A stretch of DNA of 63,708 bases, counting the filler, from Reticulomyxa filosa (Eukaryota; Protista; Foraminifera): NCBI GenBank assembly GCA_000512085.1. It is 16 parts of 16 records of this genome, joined end to end, with 100 filler letters (N's around TTAATTAATTAA, not from the genome) between each part and the next. Parts side by side here need not be neighbours in the genome. Positions count along the whole stretch, not along the records: positions 50,343 to 51,508 come from ASPP01002065.1; positions 51,609 to 53,238 come from ASPP01028595.1; 14 more parts are not named here. The stretch is one strand, 5' to 3'. The notes under the pieces were generated by a model. It did not search any database, was not told the origin of the DNA, and worked only from the letters and a program-made list of their open reading frames with translations. A program made the translations under genes and the position numbers. This document shows, in pieces, positions 1,821 through 53,338 of this stretch (the stretch's first letter is position 1; each line of letters begins with the position of its first letter).

Positions 1821-3454
1821 TTCAATTTTCTTCAAAACTGTGTGCTTACCAGCAGATCAAACGGTGTTCTTCTAAAAAAAAAAGGAAATATCATCTGCAA
1901 CAACCACGACTACCAGTCCCATACATTGTCTTTATATTTTTCTCTTTTTTACCATTCGATTGAATTTTGTATGGTTGTTTCAATAGAATTTTTTTAGCAA
2001 AATTTTGGAAAGAAGTTATTGAGAAACGCATAAGCAACTATCCATTATGTTGTACATATTAAACTAACTTTAATCAAAAAAGTTAGTTCATATAGCACAG
2101 ATGAATTGTTATGCGGCGAAACTTACATATTTCAATTTTAAATGTAGGAAATCAGAGTTAAGTCTTTTGAAAATGTTAATCAATTCATTTATAGGAGCTG
2201 CTTGTTCCAATTATTATGAATGGCTTAATTCCATTTTTTGAAAATATCCCAAATGTTTTTGTTAAGTGAAATTAATAGGAAAAAAAATGGTAAAGGCAAA
2301 TTGCTTAAAGAAGAAAAAGGCAAAAGAGGAAAATAGGGAGGTTATCCAGCTTTGCAAAATAATAAACAGATTTTTTATTGCATTTTGTGTATCAAACGTG
2401 AACAAACACATCATTCAGGAGTGAACTGAGCAAAGAAAACTTGCTCTTTTCCCCTCCTCGTCTGAATACTAAGGACAGACAAAAAAAAGGGGAAAATCAA
2501 AGAAGAAATGCAACAAGAAATTTTTAAAAATTGTCTTATGAACGTCTAAATTTACTGATGATGTGAAATAAGATCACTATTCCAATAAATCCCAAGCTCA
2601 TCATCAAAACCATTGATGGCCCCCTGTGTTAATTATTTTGTGTTTTTGAATATTTTTCTAAGGAAAACAAATAAACAAACAAAAATGATGTGTTTTTTGT
2701 TGTTGCATAGTTAACAGCTGGAGTCCTGGTGTATCACTGCTATAAACTCTGACAGCATTATTGGCTGGTTGTGGACCTCCCGCTTTGATCTTTCTTTGTT
2801 TGACAACTGGTCCTCTTGGCTATTGAAAAATTTGTTTTTTCGTGTAAAAACATTTCGCTCGTTGTGTACCAGAAAATTCGCTCTTTTGTTTTCACTCTTC
2901 AAGCGACGCTAAAAAAGATTTAAACGTAATACGAACTAACTGACCATTTTCAATCAAGATTATCCACAATAACGAAAGAAGCAAGATTATAATTTAATTG
3001 CAAAGCTCCAATTGGGGTGATTAAAAGTAGGATTGAGCTTTTCAATGTATACGTGAACCTTTGGAACCCAAAAGCGTCGATTGATTCCCTCACAAATAAA
3101 ACGATTTGGATTTTTGTTTGCAATTTAGAATTTATGATACTAATTAAAATTTTTCCTTTATGGGCTGTTTAATACATCTTCTTATTGTGGGGAATTTCTG
3201 CAATTTCTAAAATAATACAAGATTGTGTTTGAACGACAAAATATCAATTGTATTAACTACTTACACTTCAGCTATAAAAAAAGCTGTAAAACCTTTCATC
3301 TATATTAAAAATTGACGTCTTTTTTCTTCGGGCGGACGTACCACAAAACATTCAAGATTTCGGAGTAAAAAAAAGGGAAATAACTTAGATTGAAAGATAA
3401 ATATATATATGGTATTGTTCTTTTGTATTTTTTCTTTTAGAAGATGTTGAAGAA

Positions 3455-4432
3455 ATGGTTTAAAAACTTTTGACATTACAATTTTGGGGGTACAGAGTAA
3501 TACAAAAGGTGAATTACTGAAACTGCTGGTGATAGGTCCTCACCAAAGTGGCAAAACCTCAATAGTCTATCGATACTTGCATCGAGCATTTAATGAATCT
3601 CAGGAGGTAACAATAGGGATGGATATAGCTTCCAAAACAGTGAAAGTACATGATGAAATATTAAATATACAATTATGGGACATTGCAGGACAGGATAGAT
3701 TTATTGCCCTTGCTCCAGTTCAGATACACATAAAATGCATGCACAAATCTAATCAATAGATTTAACTAAAAAAAAGGGGGACATTGCCAAAAAAAAAAAA
3801 AAAGAAAGAAGGGGGGGGGAAACAAAAATAAAAAGACATATTATAGAAATGCGTTGGGGGCAATAGTAGTATTTGATGCAACAAACAAAGAATCATTAGA
3901 AAAAGCATTGAAATGGAAAGAACATTTAGATGACAAAGTCTGCTTGAAAAATGGGGACCATATTCCGGCTGTCTTATTCGCCAATAAAGTTTTCTTATTT
4001 CGTTTTGTTTTTTTTGTTAACCTTTTTGTGAATAGTGAGCCCCAACATATACATATACCATATATATTGTACATATTGTGCGTAATATATATATACATAC
4101 ATATATGTACATGTGGGATGCAATGTTATCAATCATGCAATTATGTATAATATAAACTGTGACAGTGGGATTTAATTGATGCAAATCCAGAAATGCAAAG
4201 CGTGACAGATGAGGTATTGCACGAGATGATAGAAGGACACAATTTTATTAATTGGTATCCGACGTCCGCCAAAAGTGAATTGAATGTTAAAAAAGGCATC
4301 AACTCTTTAATCCAACACATTGTGCGCAACACTAAAAATGGCAAGGATCAGGGAGATTCCAGATCTAGAGTTGATCTGCAAGCATCTGTTGACAATCCTA
4401 AGAATGATCGTTGTGGGGCGTGCGCGAGATAA
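3455..4432 (+). CDS. Rab32/38-like small GTPase (spliced)
   Basis: G1 GPHQSGKTS, TIGMD, WDIAGQDRF (WDIAGQ is the Rab32/38/29 signature), YYRNALGA, ANKWD across the intron, WYPTSAK, C-terminal CGACAR. Introns 3718-3835 and 3989-4165 keep frame. Probable start is ATG 3455 followed by a 38-nt intron (3458-3495); the start is less certain. Confidence 0.9.
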
Positions 4433-4877
4433 CGTGCACACGTCATTTACAAAATCAAATGATAGTCGCTTTTTCTTTTTTTTTTAAATAAACTCGCATT
4501 GAGCACATGAATCTTTTGTGTTCAATGCTTTTGTCTTCTTTCTTTTTTTTTATTTTGTCTGAGCACTCACTTCTTTCACGATATGATATTTACAGTTAAT
4601 TACACAACATTCAAGCGAATAATTCTGACTATTTTTTTTTCCAAGCAAGTTCAATTTTTTTTCTCCTTCTCCACAGCAATTTGTTTATAAAAAAATTAAC
4701 AAATGATGATAAATAAAAAAATTAAAAAATCTGGTACTAGACCTTTTTGTCAAACCCTTCAAAATGTATTTTTATAAAAAATATATACAAAATTTTGCTG
4801 TGCTGCATTTGTTATGAATAGTATAATTTAATAAAGTAATGCGTAAAAAGCATAATATATTTGGATTACTTGCCAAG

Positions 4878-9293: not shown

Positions 9294-11942
9294 ATGTCGG
9301 TGGACTTGGACTACTTGCAAGATACCAAAAATGTGACTGATAAAGGTGAGAGTTCAGTTGCGAAAGAAGGAAGAGACAAAGAGTCCGAAACAGACTTGTT
9401 AGATGCGCCTCGGGCGTCATCGGCACCAGCCCCTTCCCCCTCGCCAACATTGTCTCCAATGCCGTCAAGCGCGAATACAGCGATCATAAAGAAGACGGAG
9501 AGCAGGACGAAAGGCGCGACTCCATTGAAGAGGCACACCATTGGATCTACACCTACTGCCGTGACGAGTGAAGCCACAGTCAACACTGCAGCAGTATCCC
9601 AAAACAAAAATCAGTCATTGACCAAGAAAGTAAAGTCTGGTTATTACTGTCATTACTATACATATACATATATATATATATATGTATATATATTATATAT
9701 GTATATGTATATATTTTTTTTGACGAGAAAAGGCAAAGGGGGCGATATTTATTTAACACAATGAGTGACAATGTATTGTGATTAACATTTGTGCGTAGGA
9801 CTATGGAAGGGTGCATTGACAATAAAGACATCCAGTCCGATTCGCGCAATGTCGAAGCGCAACTCATCCCCATTGCCAGTGAGAAGTGGGAAGAGCACGA
9901 CCGTTTTGACAGTATAAAGTTGACAACAGATGACTTGTATCGAATAAAGCGAAATGCAGACGGAACCGCGCACGAGTTGACAATAATAATGCTCGGAGGG
10001 AGTCGAAGTGGGAAGACGAGTGTCGTGCGAAGGTTTGTGATGGATGTGTTCAGTCCGAAATACAAGCGTTCGGTGGGATGGAAGAAGTATCAGCGTCATT
10101 GCATAATGCCCATTGAGCTTCATGAACGAAGTTTGGCCGACACAAACGTGGACGTAATGTCCCGCGAGGCATCTCCGAATCCCGCTCCGTCCTCGGAACA
10201 AACGTATCTTTGGAATCATTTCGATTGGTCTGATGACGACATTGATACAATGGATAAGTCGCCATCGGACACGTGTGAAATGACAAGTGAGATAAGTGGG
10301 ATTGATTCGGACGTCAATGATAATGACAAGCCTATTACGACGACGACGACGACAACGAGAACTACAACAACAACAACAACAACAACAACAACAGCGACGA
10401 AACAGCGATTGAGTAATGCCAAAACACAACTTCGCATCACTCAAATGGACTTGGATATCACTTTGAATATAATTGACTTGGGCTTCCATGCCATTGCCGA
10501 CGATACCTTTTTTGAAAAGGTGAATGCGCTAGTCTTGGTCTGCGATGTGACCGACGCCTCGTCGTTGGACCACTTACTGTTCAAATATCAAGACTTTCTC
10601 AGCAAAGTGCCGCTGCTGCGTAAGCATCGCGCGTCGTCGGTATCCAGTGACACGCTGCGCCATTGCGCTGATCCCTCGCCTTTCATCCCTGTCATTGTCG
10701 CCGCCAACAAGTGCGATCTCAAATCCAAGCGCGTCATCTCTCATCAACATATTCGCACCTTTGTTCAAACCAAAATCCAACCCATTCTCGATGCGCATTG
10801 CTCGATCCATCAGAATTGTAACAATTCTACTCGTCATCAACACACTCACCAACATTCTCATTCTCATCCTCATTCTCATTCCCTTCGTCAGCCTCATCAA
10901 CATTCACATCAATATCCGCATCCACATCAATCTCAACATCCATATCAACCTCAACATTCATATCATCGTCAACTTCGAGAAGATGCCGACTTTGGAGAAT
11001 ATGATGAACAACTGTCTATTGACACCAATAGTGGCACGAATACTCCCAAACCCAATATCATGTCCACACCCATTACACCTTATCGATCCAGTGACATTGA
11101 CTATCATTCCAATGACAACTCTGCGCGCGGAGCGGCGAAAATGAAATTGATGAGTCCGTCCCCTGCTCTCGGAAATGACAGTCCTGTCAGCGTTTTTTCC
11201 AGACGTCAGTGTCATGACACTACCGTATGGAGTCCACCCTCTGTCGGCATGCTATGTGTTGATCAAGATGCCACTTGGAGTGATGACGAGTGTCATGATG
11301 CCACACCTTCAATTAGTGCCACGAATATCAATCCAAACCATCTAGACTCTGTCATAAAGGCAAAACTAATAGGCGATCCCTCACACAAAGAACTGAAAAC
11401 AGCGAAGCGATTGAAAGATATACTATTTCATTCACTTGAACCACAGGAAGACACTGGGAACAACGGAAGAGATCAAGAACAACCATGTCCGGAGGACGAT
11501 GACGAAAACGCAAATATTGATGCTAGAACTGACAGTGGCAGTGAAGACAAACTTGTTGATCAGGACTTGAATTCGGATCCTGCACACATCACCATTGTCG
11601 AATGTAGTGCTGCAAATGGAAAAAATGTTTCCAAAATTTTTGAAAAATGCATTCATAAGGTAAGAGGATGAAAGAAAAAAACAATTAGATATACATATAC
11701 TGTATGGGCTATACATACAAAAAACAAAAAAGCTTCTTCCATCGCGATTGACCGAAACGAAGCACAGGCGAAGGAAAACAACTGCGTTGGTTACGGCACC
11801 AATTTGGTTGCGGCAAATTGTGGATACGTTCACTCACTCGGATGAAGAGGACTCCTTTGTCACAAAAGAGTCGATTGAAAATGATAGAAGTGTTGTGTTA
11901 GACGATTACGAGGAAAAGATGCTGGAGTCCTCGCTCGATTAA
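9294..11942 (+). CDS. Atypical Ras-superfamily GTPase-like protein with large low-complexity inserts
   Basis: G1 GGSRSGKTS (9995), degenerate G3 IDLGF (10475), LVCDVTDASSLDHL, G4 NKCD (10706), G5 ECSAANGKNVSKIFE (11600). Introns 9635-9798 and 11660-11732 keep frame. No CAAX. The 5' end may extend into the gap. Confidence 0.8.
10337..10392 (+). repeat. (ACG)n/(ACA)n trinucleotide tract encoding poly-Thr
   Basis: Directly visible and in frame within ORF 9791-11671. Confidence 0.9.
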
Positions 11943-40037: not shown

Positions 40038-42341
40038 ATGAAAGACAAACTAAGCAAACTGAACAAATTCAACATCCTAATACTTCAATTTTCTTTCGAG
40101 ATTTGGAAGATTTGCTTATTCCACCTTTTGAAAGATTTTTATTGATCGCTTTCAAACTCGGAAAGCTTTGCCTACTACACTTTCTGAAAGACAACAACTT
40201 CTTATTGACCCCTTTCAAACTCTGAAAGCTTTGCCCATTCCACTTTCTCATTCTCAGTGTATACTACACAAACACGAAATCCTCATTTGTGGAGGTAAAG
40301 ACGAAAGAGCTTGTTATTCTTATCATACACTCAAAAATGAATACAAGTTTATCTGTGAATATCCAAGTCATGTTACATTAGATGGACACTGTGTAGTGAA
40401 ACTGGTAAATAACAACAACAAAGACAACAATCAAATTACTTTGTTGTCTTTTGGTGGAAAATATAAACATACGTTGGTGATGAAATATGTAAGCATTTGG
40501 AATGACGAAGACAACAAATCAAAGGAATTAAATGAATTAAACAATTACAATGAATGGGTTCCTTTTACAGACAATTACAACCATCCAATTACCATTGGAA
40601 GCGATAATGAAATTTATGAAGGAGTGCGTGCAGTGATTGGTGGACGTAACAATAATTTGTTATTTAGCACTTATCTTTATTGTAATATTAGTGTGTTTGA
40701 TTTAAATACATATGATAAATTACCAGCTAATAATTATATTGAATATCATTGCTTTGTATCAAATTCAGAAAATGGACAAGAACAAGAAATGATGGATATA
40801 AATCAAGAAAAAAATACAAAAAATTATCAAATGTTTTTGTTTTATAAAGATATAGGACTGTCAATTCGATATAATGAAAATAGCAACACTTTTCAATTTC
40901 ATCAACTACTTGTTTGTGATGATATTGCGCCATTATTTAAATATGCATATGTATGTATCAATGATATTATCTTGTTCTTTGGTGGGTGGAATATCAATAA
41001 TGCTGCTGTTTCAAAATCAGTGCATCAGTATTTAATTCGAAAAAACAAATGGATGACATTTAAACACTTTTTACCCGATCCATTAGAGAATTGTGTTGCA
41101 ATACTGAGCAAAGAAGACAATAATATACATATCATTGGAGGAAGAGATGATAATAGGAAAACAGTATTAACTCACATAAATATAAAAGCGTGTGCATTGG
41201 ATACTCTGCATCTGGTAATGATTTGTCTTTTTATTTTTTTGATGATCAATAGAATAAATTATATTACATAAATTACAAATAATGAACAGTCAAAAAATGA
41301 AATAAAATGTATCACTCAATATTGGATTCGAGTTTTAACGATAAAATTAGGATGGATCGATGAATTTAACAAAATTGTTATCAACTATGTTAAGTAATAT
41401 TTTTTTTTGTAAATAAATGATTGTTATTATATAATTTGCATTTTCAAATAGGTAAAAGGTTATCAATTGTTAATGGTTTTACAAGGACATGACAAAGCAG
41501 TAAGCAGTGTAAGATTTTCTGCAGATGGTCGCAAGATTGTTTCAGTATTATATAATAATACTGTTCGAATATGGGATGTTTCATCGAGAGAACAGCTTCG
41601 AATTTTCAAAGGGCATACTAAATTTTTCTTTACTGCAAAATTTTCACCAGATGGGCATACTGTTGTTTCATGTTCAAGTGATGGAACAATTCGATTATGG
41701 GATGTCAATAGAGGCACTGAGATAATAAAATTACAAAGAGATTTTGATGAGATATGGGATGTTGATTTTTCTCCAAATGGAAGATATTTGTGTCAGGTTT
41801 TAAAGATAACACAATAAGATTATGGGATATACATTCTGGAATAGAAATGAATCAATTATTAGGACATTCAGAAAGTGTACTTAGTACACAATTTTCACCA
41901 GATGGTAAAATGATTGTATCATCATCAAATGATACAACAATTAATTTGTGGAATGTAGAATCTGGTGAATTATTGAGACAATTCAAAGGACATTCTCGTA
42001 GTGTAACACGTGCAAGATTTTCTCCAGATGGTAAATTTATTGTATCATGCTCAGCTGATAATACAATTCGAATATGGGATATTGAAACAGGAATATAATT
42101 GAAAATATTGAAAGAACATACAGGTTATGTGGATGATATACAATATTTTCCAGATGGTCAAACGATTGCATCATGTTCAAGAGATAGAATAGTTCAATTG
42201 TAAAACACAGAATTAGGGGAAAGAATACAAATATTGAACGGAAATTCTGATATGAAATGTGTGGATGTTTCTCAAAATGGGAATAAAATTATATTAGGCT
42301 ATAATGATTGTAAAATCCGAGTTTTTGGATTATTACATTAA
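40038..42341 (+). pseudogene. Kelch-like propeller + adaptor exon + WD40 repeats (disrupted)
   Basis: Kelch-like exon to 41214 (ILICGG, LLSFGG, VIGG, LFFGG, HIIGG), phase-0 exon 41290-41388, and WD40 exon from 41452 (GH..V.SVRFSADG...IWD repeats). Frameshift at about 41790, in-frame TAA at 42096 and about 42201, and frameshifts at the 5' end. Confidence 0.85.
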
Positions 42342-50349: not shown

Positions 50350-50494
50350 AAATATCTACGAATTGTGTAGTTTTTAAATATCATTTTAATTTTAGTTTTT
50401 ATTTTTCATCAAATGAAAGATTCAAATGTTTGAAAAAATTTCGAAAAACTAAAACCAAAATGATATCTAAAAACTACACAATTCGTAGATATTT
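50350..50494. repeat. Near-perfect palindrome / foldback element (family D)
   Basis: Arms 50350-50400 and 50444-50494 are reverse complements at 48/51 positions, with a 43-nt loop. Confidence 0.9.
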
Positions 50495-51240: not shown

Positions 51241-53238
51241 TTATGAAGATTTTCTTTGTTGAAAAATAATGTCATAATCAGTTGTGTCTTGGCTTTCCAC
51301 ACAATACCATTCACCATTTCTATTCTCACGAATATCTTGTTTGATATTGTCCAACATTTTCTTCAATGGATATCCACTTTTGTATTTGGATTTGACAACC
51401 CTTGTCATGCAATTACTTAACAATGAAAAATCAGCAACTTGATGTCCTTGAGTAGTTGACCAAATGGTCAAAAATCCATCGTCATTATGTCCATATAATG
51501 GCATATCTNNNNNNNNNNNNNNNNNNNNNNNNNNNNNNNNNNNNNNNNNNNNTTAATTAATTAANNNNNNNNNNNNNNNNNNNNNNNNNNNNNNNNNNNN
51601 NNNNNNNNTACCTTTATGATCACCATGCCCACATATGATCATTACTAGAGCATCATACTGATTTTTATTTTCTCCAAGCTGCTTGGCCACATTATCTGTA
51701 AAGTCTTCAATTTTTTTTGCATCAATATATAATTCTTCATTATGTACAAATTCATAGTTCAAATTTTTTTTAAACAATTCTTGAAAGTCATTAAGCTCGT
51801 CTTTCACAGCTGAAAGTTCACCAAATGACTTATATTCACAAACAGCAATCATAGCCACCAATGCATTTTTAATAACTTTTGGCACTCTAAGAGGTTGCGA
51901 TCGTTGTATTTTGAAATAAGGCTTTCTAATTTTAAATTCTTTCTCAACAGCTTCATCAGATGTAATAATATTATCCTTCACATCCGCCAATTCGAGTCTC
52001 AAATTTTTTTCTCGCATGTCTCGAATCATCTCGGAAATATATGTATATACATTTATACATATATTTATTTATTTAATAAAAAGTATTCAAACATCAATGT
52101 CAGCTTCAATGCTCGTAGGTATGTCTTCATCTGCCACTTTGGCATCTCCAACCGTATCTTGAGCCTCAATATGATCTATCCATTTGCTCACATCCATTTT
52201 GATGTGTGTATTGATATCTTTCGAGTTTCCATTGCCGCCGAGGATATGGACAAAAGTGTTGTCTGCACTCAACACCGCTGTGCATCCCTTCAGCGCACTG
52301 GGCAAAGTGCAGTCAAATTTAGTCCATTGCTTTGTGGTCATCGAATAGCCATGCACCACATTGATTTGCTCTATCCAGGTAGAGCCTCCAAAAAACAAGA
52401 TCTTGTCACGGACACGCACAAAGCCATAATCATAAACTCCCTTAATATCATCACAAACTCCAATCTCACGAAAGTCAAAGGAGCGATTTTTTTCATCATA
52501 TTGAATCAACAATCCCATTTCTTTTCGGAACAATAACATTTCATTGATAGCTTTTTTTGCATTGGCATTTGTGCGTGCCATTTTGTCGATGCCTTGATCG
52601 CCATTCGACACAAAGCAGTGATAATTTGCACACACTTTTAGCTCAAATTTGCCTTTTGCTTCACGTTCAAATGTATTCAAATTAAACACTGCAATATATT
52701 TTGGATAGTATGTAATGAACAACAAATGATTATTACTTCCACCAACCAATGCACGTGCGCACCGATAATCATCCTCCTCTGTTCCAATCTTTTTCTGACT
52801 TTTCACCCATTTGTTTACATTTTCATCTTCCATTACCTTGCTGCTGCTGCTGCTGCTTTCGTCATCCCAAACACTCTTATATTTCATTTGCAAGGTGTGC
52901 TTCTTATCTTTATCCCCTCCACCAAATGATAACAGTGTAATCCCACTCCAATCTTTATTGTCCGGCAATCTCACCACACAGTGTCCCTCTAATTTCAATT
53001 TCTCGGGATAACTGCAAATGTATTTGTACTCGTTTTTTGCTGTGCTATACGAGTAACAGTTATTGTTCGAATCCCCACCACAAATCAGTATCTCATCTTT
53101 GTATATCACACACTGGCATCGAGACAACGGAGTGGGTAAACTACGCAAGGCTTCAAGCGCTGGCATGTTGTCTGTAGTCAATGTGTCGCAAATTGAACCA
53201 TTTTTACCTGTTGGATGTGCTACGCGTTTAAAGATTGG
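51241..53238 (-). CDS. Kelch-like propeller fused to a caspase-like (peptidase C14) protease
   Basis: Uninterrupted Kelch exon (open from the gap at 53238 to 52093) and phase-0 intron 52092-52030 (GTTTGA...CCGAG). Exon 52029-51609 carries NALVAMIAVCEY...YDALVMIICGHG (p20 with catalytic His). After gap 51509-51608 comes the p10-like DDGFLTIWSTTQGHQV...S, ending at 51241. Confidence 0.78.
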
Positions 53239-53338
53239 NNNNNNNNNNNNNNNNNNNNNNNNNNNNNNNNNNNNNNNNNNNNTTAATTAATTAANNNNNN
53301 NNNNNNNNNNNNNNNNNNNNNNNNNNNNNNNNNNNNNN

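Follow-up and report, generated by a model that had tools for sequence, protein, structure and literature searches.

The 63,708-nucleotide stretch of Reticulomyxa filosa DNA analysed here (the window) carries, on a 1630-bp contig, what is likely one spliced chain joining a Kelch propeller to the p20 part of a protease, a divergent and shortened member of a foraminiferan caspase-fold family for which cleavage after Arg or Lys is predicted; the p10 across an artificial spacer probably comes from a different paralogue. A first-pass annotation of this DNA had presented the locus as an apparently intact Kelch-caspase fusion. The locus does not stand alone: databases already annotate the family to which it belongs, and full fusions of Kelch to a C14 protease are present in GenBank/UniProt (e.g. 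RFI_04124). The worthwhile result lies at the level of the family, a set of caspase-shaped, modular and probably Arg/Lys-specific foraminiferan proteases. The window copy is shortened, split across contigs and probably chimeric at the spacer, which makes it ill suited for study; the complete member to work on is RFI_04124.

Kelch exon and protease frame on one contig

The Kelch-like exon is unbroken, as had been claimed. Its minus-strand open reading frame (53238-52090) contains no stop codon and stays open up to the contig end at 53238, with a score of 20.3 bits against Pfam Kelch_1 (cut-off 20.1) and E 2e-9 against other propeller models. From the reading frame and the Pfam matches we placed exon 1 at 52093-53166 on the minus strand, with a likely ATG at 53166, encoding a Reticulomyxa-type Kelch beta-propeller and a tail of ~30 amino acids. 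A structure model of a paralogue's Kelch domain, folded in place of that of the window, matched the Kelch domains of KLHDC10, LZTR1 and KLHL proteins (E 1e-14). Upstream lies an artificial spacer (53239-53338), and the 5' UTR and promoter are beyond view. The exon-1 tail was also considered as a remnant of the small helical domain of the paralogues, an idea that we dropped: the match to the end of that domain was weak, its best score being met by 52 of 2000 shuffles and its mean score by 249 of 2000, with a profile E of 0.33. Elsewhere in the window, a second Reticulomyxa-type Kelch reading frame lies at 40132-41268 (plus strand; 44% identity to the Kelch domain described here and 61% to that of P0042), and two WD40 fragments, each in its own frame, follow at 41452-42095 (plus strand). 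A single 629-codon frame at 9782-11668 (plus strand) has a Ras-family match N-terminally and long low-complexity inserts.

Downstream of exon 1 we predicted a phase-0 intron of 63 nt (52030-52092, minus strand; GTTTGA...GAG), which contains in-frame TGA and TAA codons. Its donor GT is at 52092, and its acceptor AG at 52031-52030 is the first AG 3' of the donor. Twelve donor-acceptor pairs preserve the frame, the other acceptors being AAG at 51976 or 51922 and GAG at 51943. Among five introns in other window genes, read by eye, the donor was GTT in four, and the acceptor was AAG in four, CAG in one and GAG in none; judged against these, the predicted intron has a typical donor and an atypical acceptor. 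The intron proposed at first pass holds in part, in its GT and AG ends, its length and the open frame after it, and is called into question by the unusual acceptor and by a public gene model that stops at a TGA. Introns with degenerate sites (five, by eye) were observed at 3400-4500 and 26800-28300 of the window; GTT served as the donor, and the AAG acceptors were A-rich and had no pyrimidine tract before them.

Exon 2 would open within the beta-grasp (PB1/ubiquitin-like) domain of the family, of which it has the C-terminal half (51904-52029, minus strand) but neither the helix nor the first two strands, as judged by alignment and by comparison with the secondary structure of P0042 (residues 582-662). 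The p20 large-subunit segment follows at 51610-51876 (minus strand) and runs up to the catalytic His-Gly in ICGHG, with the His codon at 51627-51625 and the frame ending YDALVMIICGHGDHKG (ICGHGDHKG) at 51610. The p20-like domain reported at first pass is confirmed by this ending and by similarity to PF00656 proteins of R. filosa (E 3e-20 to one such protein; 41% identity to P0001). The p10 piece shares 70% identity with P0001. By this homology and the catalytic His-Gly motif, the window copy falls in clan CD, peptidase family C14, an assignment that holds through relatives and not through a direct profile match: the p20 and p10 pieces taken singly had no match to PF00656 at E<=1, and the paralogues score 50-73 bits on it.

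Whether Kelch and p20 form one working gene can be judged from their divergence. The window Kelch domain, at 42-47% identity to eight others of R. filosa, branches off outside this group, and the window p20 shares 36-52% identity with the p20 of seven Kelch fusions; this equal divergence from the paralogues supports a single gene on the 1630-bp contig. The p20 segment retains 40 of the 49 columns that are conserved at >=80%, versus 25 of 88 other columns, and in simulations of neutral decay to 50% identity only 3 of 500 sequences stayed free of stops. Conserved columns and an open frame, set against simulated decay, point to selection on the p20 frame.

The alternative is a Kelch gene that stops on its own at the TGA at 52089-52087, with a protease relic behind it that is unspliced and truncated at its 5' end, in which case no fused protein would be made. 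Public annotation lists the Kelch frame as a separate 359-aa protein ending at that codon. No annotated protein among those of at least 246 aa that we searched contains the window p20, and the p20 piece started from either ATG had no exact match in the public protein collection. The unusual GAG acceptor that splicing would need, the step in GC3s from 0.40 in the Kelch exon to 0.22 in exon 2 (p 1e-4), and the missing helical domain and half beta-grasp all speak for the same reading. It is harder to reconcile with a p20 frame that is still open, with all its indels in-frame and its conserved columns kept at ~45% identity, or with a distance of only 60 nt from the stop codon to the next ATG. Kelch fusions are moreover frequent in this protease family, and several paralogue gene models hold intron-like, Val-initial retained stretches at roughly the same place (by eye). 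We consider two separate units quite improbable.

The spliced Kelch-p20 chain that we prefer would still be a shortened one. The absence of visible lesions had been stressed at first pass, and the frames are indeed open, but the copy is without the ~100 amino acids of linker and helical domain that are present in most full paralogues, and without the first half of the beta-grasp domain. Whole modules are dispensable in paralogues (P0062, P0070, P0053); a half domain was found in no other, and the one in the window copy may not fold. By its sequence the copy is a shortened and divergent family member that is not intact by the standards of its family.

Spacer and ownership of the p10 segment

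The catalytic Cys had been supposed to lie hidden in a gap at 51509-51608. This region is a standard 100-nt spacer between separate contigs and not a sized gap: it is one of 15 identical spacers (44N-TTAATTAATTAA-44N, with stops in all frames), and its flanks are separate public contigs of 1630 and 1166 bp that correspond exactly to the two window segments. If the flanks belonged to one gene, a stretch of ~59 codons (177 nt) with the Cys motif in it would be absent. The adjacency assumed for the two contigs reduces to their order and orientation, which are correct for p20 and p10 across the spacer and suggest some assembly link, though not its length. All 14 complete window segments are longer than 1000 bp, and 5 of 37 family matches lie on shorter contigs, which may mean that contigs below this length were left out.

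The p10 small-subunit segment (51241-51507, minus strand) includes the dimer strand and the L5 Asp codon at 51432-51430. Its frame (51507-51244) contains GFLTIWSTTQG and ends at a stop codon at 51243-51241, and the public collection lists it as an 87-aa protein on the 1166-bp contig. A p10 on the same strand had been noted at first pass, and this stands; that it completes the same protein probably does not. The window p10 shares 92% identity with P0041 and clusters with it and P0028 (SH-aLRT 96, end branch 0.04), and the window p20, on an end branch of 0.8-1.1, was placed in a different clade. The trees comprised sequences of this family; P0074, P0085, P0035 and P0067 were excluded throughout, P0063 and P0056 also from the AU and split-gene tests, and P0054 and P0059 also from the split-gene test. 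Across 26 paralogues the affinities of the window p20 and p10 were negatively rank-correlated (rho -0.44, p 0.02), whereas 25 of 26 real genes gave a positive correlation, and the p20/p10 identity gap was +0.17, versus -0.04 ± 0.06 in real genes. The p20 is identical to P0041 in 13 of 23 shared columns, against 92% for the p10 (Fisher p 2e-4); in real pairs with p10 identity >=0.8, the p20 match was as low as that of the window in 1 of 16. Since the p10 is 92% identical to a paralogue while Kelch and p20 are both divergent, it probably derives from a different gene. The tree tests are suggestive in the same sense, and on balance we favour a p10 that belongs to a different paralogue than the Kelch-p20 chain.

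The alternative is that Kelch, p20 and p10 form one gene, with ~59 codons hidden in the spacer and with recombination or gene conversion among paralogues as the cause of the mismatch between its halves. Pieces in proper order and orientation across a spacer would be rare by chance ordering, the GC3s of exon 2 and p10 agree (0.22 vs 0.23), and module shuffling is visible in the family. An AU test, run with fast searches and noisy, did not reject one clade for the window, nor for any of 14 split true genes, and the placement conflict of the window (6.9) was exceeded in 2 of 15 real genes split likewise (9.1 and 9.8). A single gene must nevertheless contend with flanks that are separate contigs, with the disparity between p10 and p20 towards P0041 described above, and with divergence that affects Kelch and p20 and spares the p10. 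Tandem paralogues do exist, P0046 and P0019 being consecutive locus tags (RFI_12165 and RFI_12166) on one 6224-bp contig, and at several other spacers a reading frame enters and does not continue beyond (by eye). We regard a single gene as rather unlikely and retain the reading of a Kelch-p20 chain beside a probably foreign p10. The end of the p10 contig farthest from the p10 segment holds a 51-nt inverted repeat (50350-50400 and 50444-50494; 94% complementary, 43 nt apart), of which a related copy lies at the end of another contig (47799-47867), possibly a small mobile element.

A modular protease family with a predicted basic specificity

The architecture of Kelch and C14 protease in one chain exists in R. 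filosa, as read from its predicted proteins. A homologue search with P0001 gave 37 matches, 36 of them named R. filosa and one from JGI, and the long-form search (>=894 aa) found five fusions, two of Kelch-C14 and three of TPR-C14. The homologue searches covered length windows of >=246 aa (for the p20 piece), 171-546 aa and >=894 aa; lengths of 547-893 aa were reached only via a profile search of 1.84 billion representatives (50% clusters), which yielded 3242 matches at E<=0.001, and fusion counts are therefore lower bounds. A scan of 46 long representatives revealed more Kelch fusions and also TPR, TRAF finger, PB1, SAM, MATH and kinase partners. A full or near-full Kelch propeller accompanies the protease in at least six R. 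filosa models (P0042, P0046, P0047, P0049, P0053, P0070), and two further models retain Kelch ends only. The combination also occurs in P0062, whose 731 amino acids on a 2268-bp JGI contig (metagenome) leave hardly any room for introns, and in P0142 and P0162 of Bolivina argentea, from a protein set that we take to be transcriptome-derived. The one-chain fusion claimed for the window is in this respect a real architecture, although the p10 next to the window copy is probably not its own. A metagenome scan produced two weak loci among 162 stretches.

Other N-terminal modules were observed on the same protease. In R. filosa these are TPR arrays or a TRAF-type zinc finger (P0043, P0044, P0045, P0052, P0057), and in distant relatives a PB1 domain (Bolivina, P0173), MATH and SAM domains (Nonionella stella, P0152) and a kinase (ENA, P0165); the distant partners suggest a foraminifera-wide modular family. 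In a model of P0042 (pLDDT 78.8) the propeller is followed by a long helix, the small helical domain, the beta-grasp and the protease. The beta-grasp resembles PB1 and ubiquitin in Atlas structures with a TM of 0.67-0.73, a value to be taken as a lead. The Trp-rich helical domain ahead of it (P0042 residues 485-548) is duplicated in some members (P0047, P0072) and had no usable match among Atlas structures.

We assessed the fold of the protease with a model of P0013 (pLDDT 88.8). It matched caspase-8 with a VIA Z of 25.3 (rmsd 2.5, 212 aligned), MALT1 with Z 20.2 (rmsd 4.0, 211 aligned) and AtMC4 with Z 17.9 (rmsd 3.4, 208 aligned), the metacaspases overall giving 12.6-17.9. A dimer model of P0013 residues 78-321 scored 0.33, with 0.01 for the best control, and placed the interface at residues 302-312 in the last strand (pLDDT >=78), where runs shared >=60% of contacts. 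This score barely passes a mark that 21 of 30 homodimers of solved structure reached and none of 23 monomers did, and the model may reflect memory of caspase dimers. Of 52 core paralogues, 44 retain both His and Cys of the dyad and 8 have lost a dyad residue, and the Cys motif is mostly D-x-C-R, not the DxCH of metacaspases.

Specificity was predicted from the S1 pocket and the intersubunit linker. According to PMC4357240, caspases bind Asp through Arg/Gln/Arg, and MALT1 binds Arg through Asp/Asp/Glu (Asp365/Asp462/Glu500) at like positions. Counted over 57 core proteins at >=250 bits, the family has Asp at alpha1 in 46 of 52, at L4 in 53 of 55 and at L5 in 37 of 44, and Arg at two candidate L1 columns in 0 of 51 and 1 of 51. 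The change from caspase Gln to Asp at L4 was read directly from a PDB alignment. For L5 the register was obtained by counting without gaps from the ST..G motif, across a stretch where HMMER placed gaps differently, and the alpha1 Asp aligns also to an Asp of caspase-3. By this register the family has a pocket that appears acidic and of MALT1 type. The window copy shows Leu (not Arg) at L1, Glu at alpha1 and Asp at L5. Independently of the pocket, 34 of 36 core members carry [RK]G in the variable linker, where shuffled sequences gave 14.6 on average and 24 at most; for distant members the figure is 10 of 12, with a shuffle mean of 3.0. None of the 36 core members has D[GSA] there, the last four residues being excluded. 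Since the Arg/Gln/Arg pocket is missing, the MALT1 positions are occupied by Asp and the linker bears [RK]G, the family is predicted to cleave after Arg/Lys and not after Asp.

The word caspase, used at first pass, is in its biochemical sense difficult to maintain with an S1 pocket that reads as acidic. A true Asp-specific caspase with a Kelch prodomain instead of CARD/DED would account for the fact that all 60 PDB sequence matches listed are animal or reconstructed caspases, that caspases are the top fold matches, and that Klim et al. group Reticulomyxa proteins with animal caspases at 92-95% bootstrap (PMC5982838). It would leave unexplained that none of Arg/Gln/Arg is kept in the family and that its linkers carry the basic motif in place of an Asp site, and we judge it very improbable. 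The predicted Arg/Lys protease is the reading adopted below.

Proposed mechanism and comparison with known systems

In the mechanism that we propose, binding of a ligand or substrate by the propeller would cluster the protease, and two protease domains would then pair via the last beta-strand, as in caspases and MALT1, and become active. The paired proteases would cut their own linker at Arg/Lys-Gly, and the activated protease would cleave substrates after basic residues. The idea of a sensor-protease is consistent with the swappable N-termini, and from the modular expansion one might guess at a role in defence or quality control. A broader reading, which seems to us possible and which we put forward tentatively, is that foraminifera possess a lineage-wide modular sensor-protease system of caspase-topology, dimer-activated, self-processing Arg/Lys proteases with swappable Kelch, TPR, TRAF-finger, PB1 and SAM modules, expanded like an innate immune repertoire and structurally intermediate between caspases and paracaspases. 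If this were true, these proteins would not be the 'protist caspases' invoked in support of caspases in the last eukaryotic ancestor.

In Klim et al. 2018 (PMC5982838) and PMC10565124, Reticulomyxa proteins are named caspases on phylogeny, and PMC10959488 uses one as an outgroup in a caspase tree. In these three sources, Reticulomyxa 'caspases' are cited as evidence for caspases predating animals and used as outgroups. The main text of PMC5982838 does not mention kelch, TPR or specificity, and among the papers listed by searches of mainly open-access literature on Reticulomyxa or foraminiferan caspases we found none that describes Kelch or TPR fusions or the pocket. The pocket and linker signatures, as aligned here, question the published label 'Reticulomyxa caspases', and cleavage after Arg/Lys, if true, would alter the reading of the Reticulomyxa evidence for pre-animal caspases.

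The closest known systems are R. filosa proteins annotated as 'Caspase family p20 domain-containing', with Kelch in RFI_04124, RFI_12165, RFI_21820, RFI_03392 and RFI_22965 and TPR in RFI_00725, RFI_29501 and RFI_02778. The window copy has the same type of Kelch domain as these R. filosa fusions and shares their His-Gly motif, their p10 and a remnant of their beta-grasp. It is more divergent than they are, has no helical domain and only half a beta-grasp, is split over two contigs and carries no annotation as a fusion. With the animal initiator caspases (C14A: caspase-8, -9, Dronc and CED-3) the family shares its fold (Z 22.7-25.3), p20 and p10 in one chain, an N-terminal recruitment module and, by prediction, a last-strand dimer. 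Unlike them it has no Arg/Gln/Arg, carries [RK]G and not Asp in its linker, and uses Kelch, TPR or a TRAF finger and not CARD/DED.

With MALT1 (C14B) the family would share the acidic alpha1, L4 and L5 positions and a predicted dimer, along with the DxCR motif and a fold match of Z 20.2. The death and Ig domains of MALT1 were absent from the Pfam matches listed for the window pieces and for 8 + 46 paralogues. The activity of MALT1 needs no self-cleavage (PMC4357240), whereas the conserved basic linker site of the family suggests that self-cleavage occurs. Paracaspases are moreover defined, in PMC5756287, by the lack of a caspase-like p10, and the family p10 aligns to that of caspase-3. With metacaspases and bacterial orthocaspases the family shares accessory domains and, if the prediction holds, a basic P1. 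Orthocaspases self-process and commonly bear their accessory domain C-terminally (PMC5756287). The family differs from these enzymes in having DxCR and not DxCH, in its lower fold match to them (Z 12.6-17.9), in its predicted dimer and in the N-terminal position of its accessory domain.
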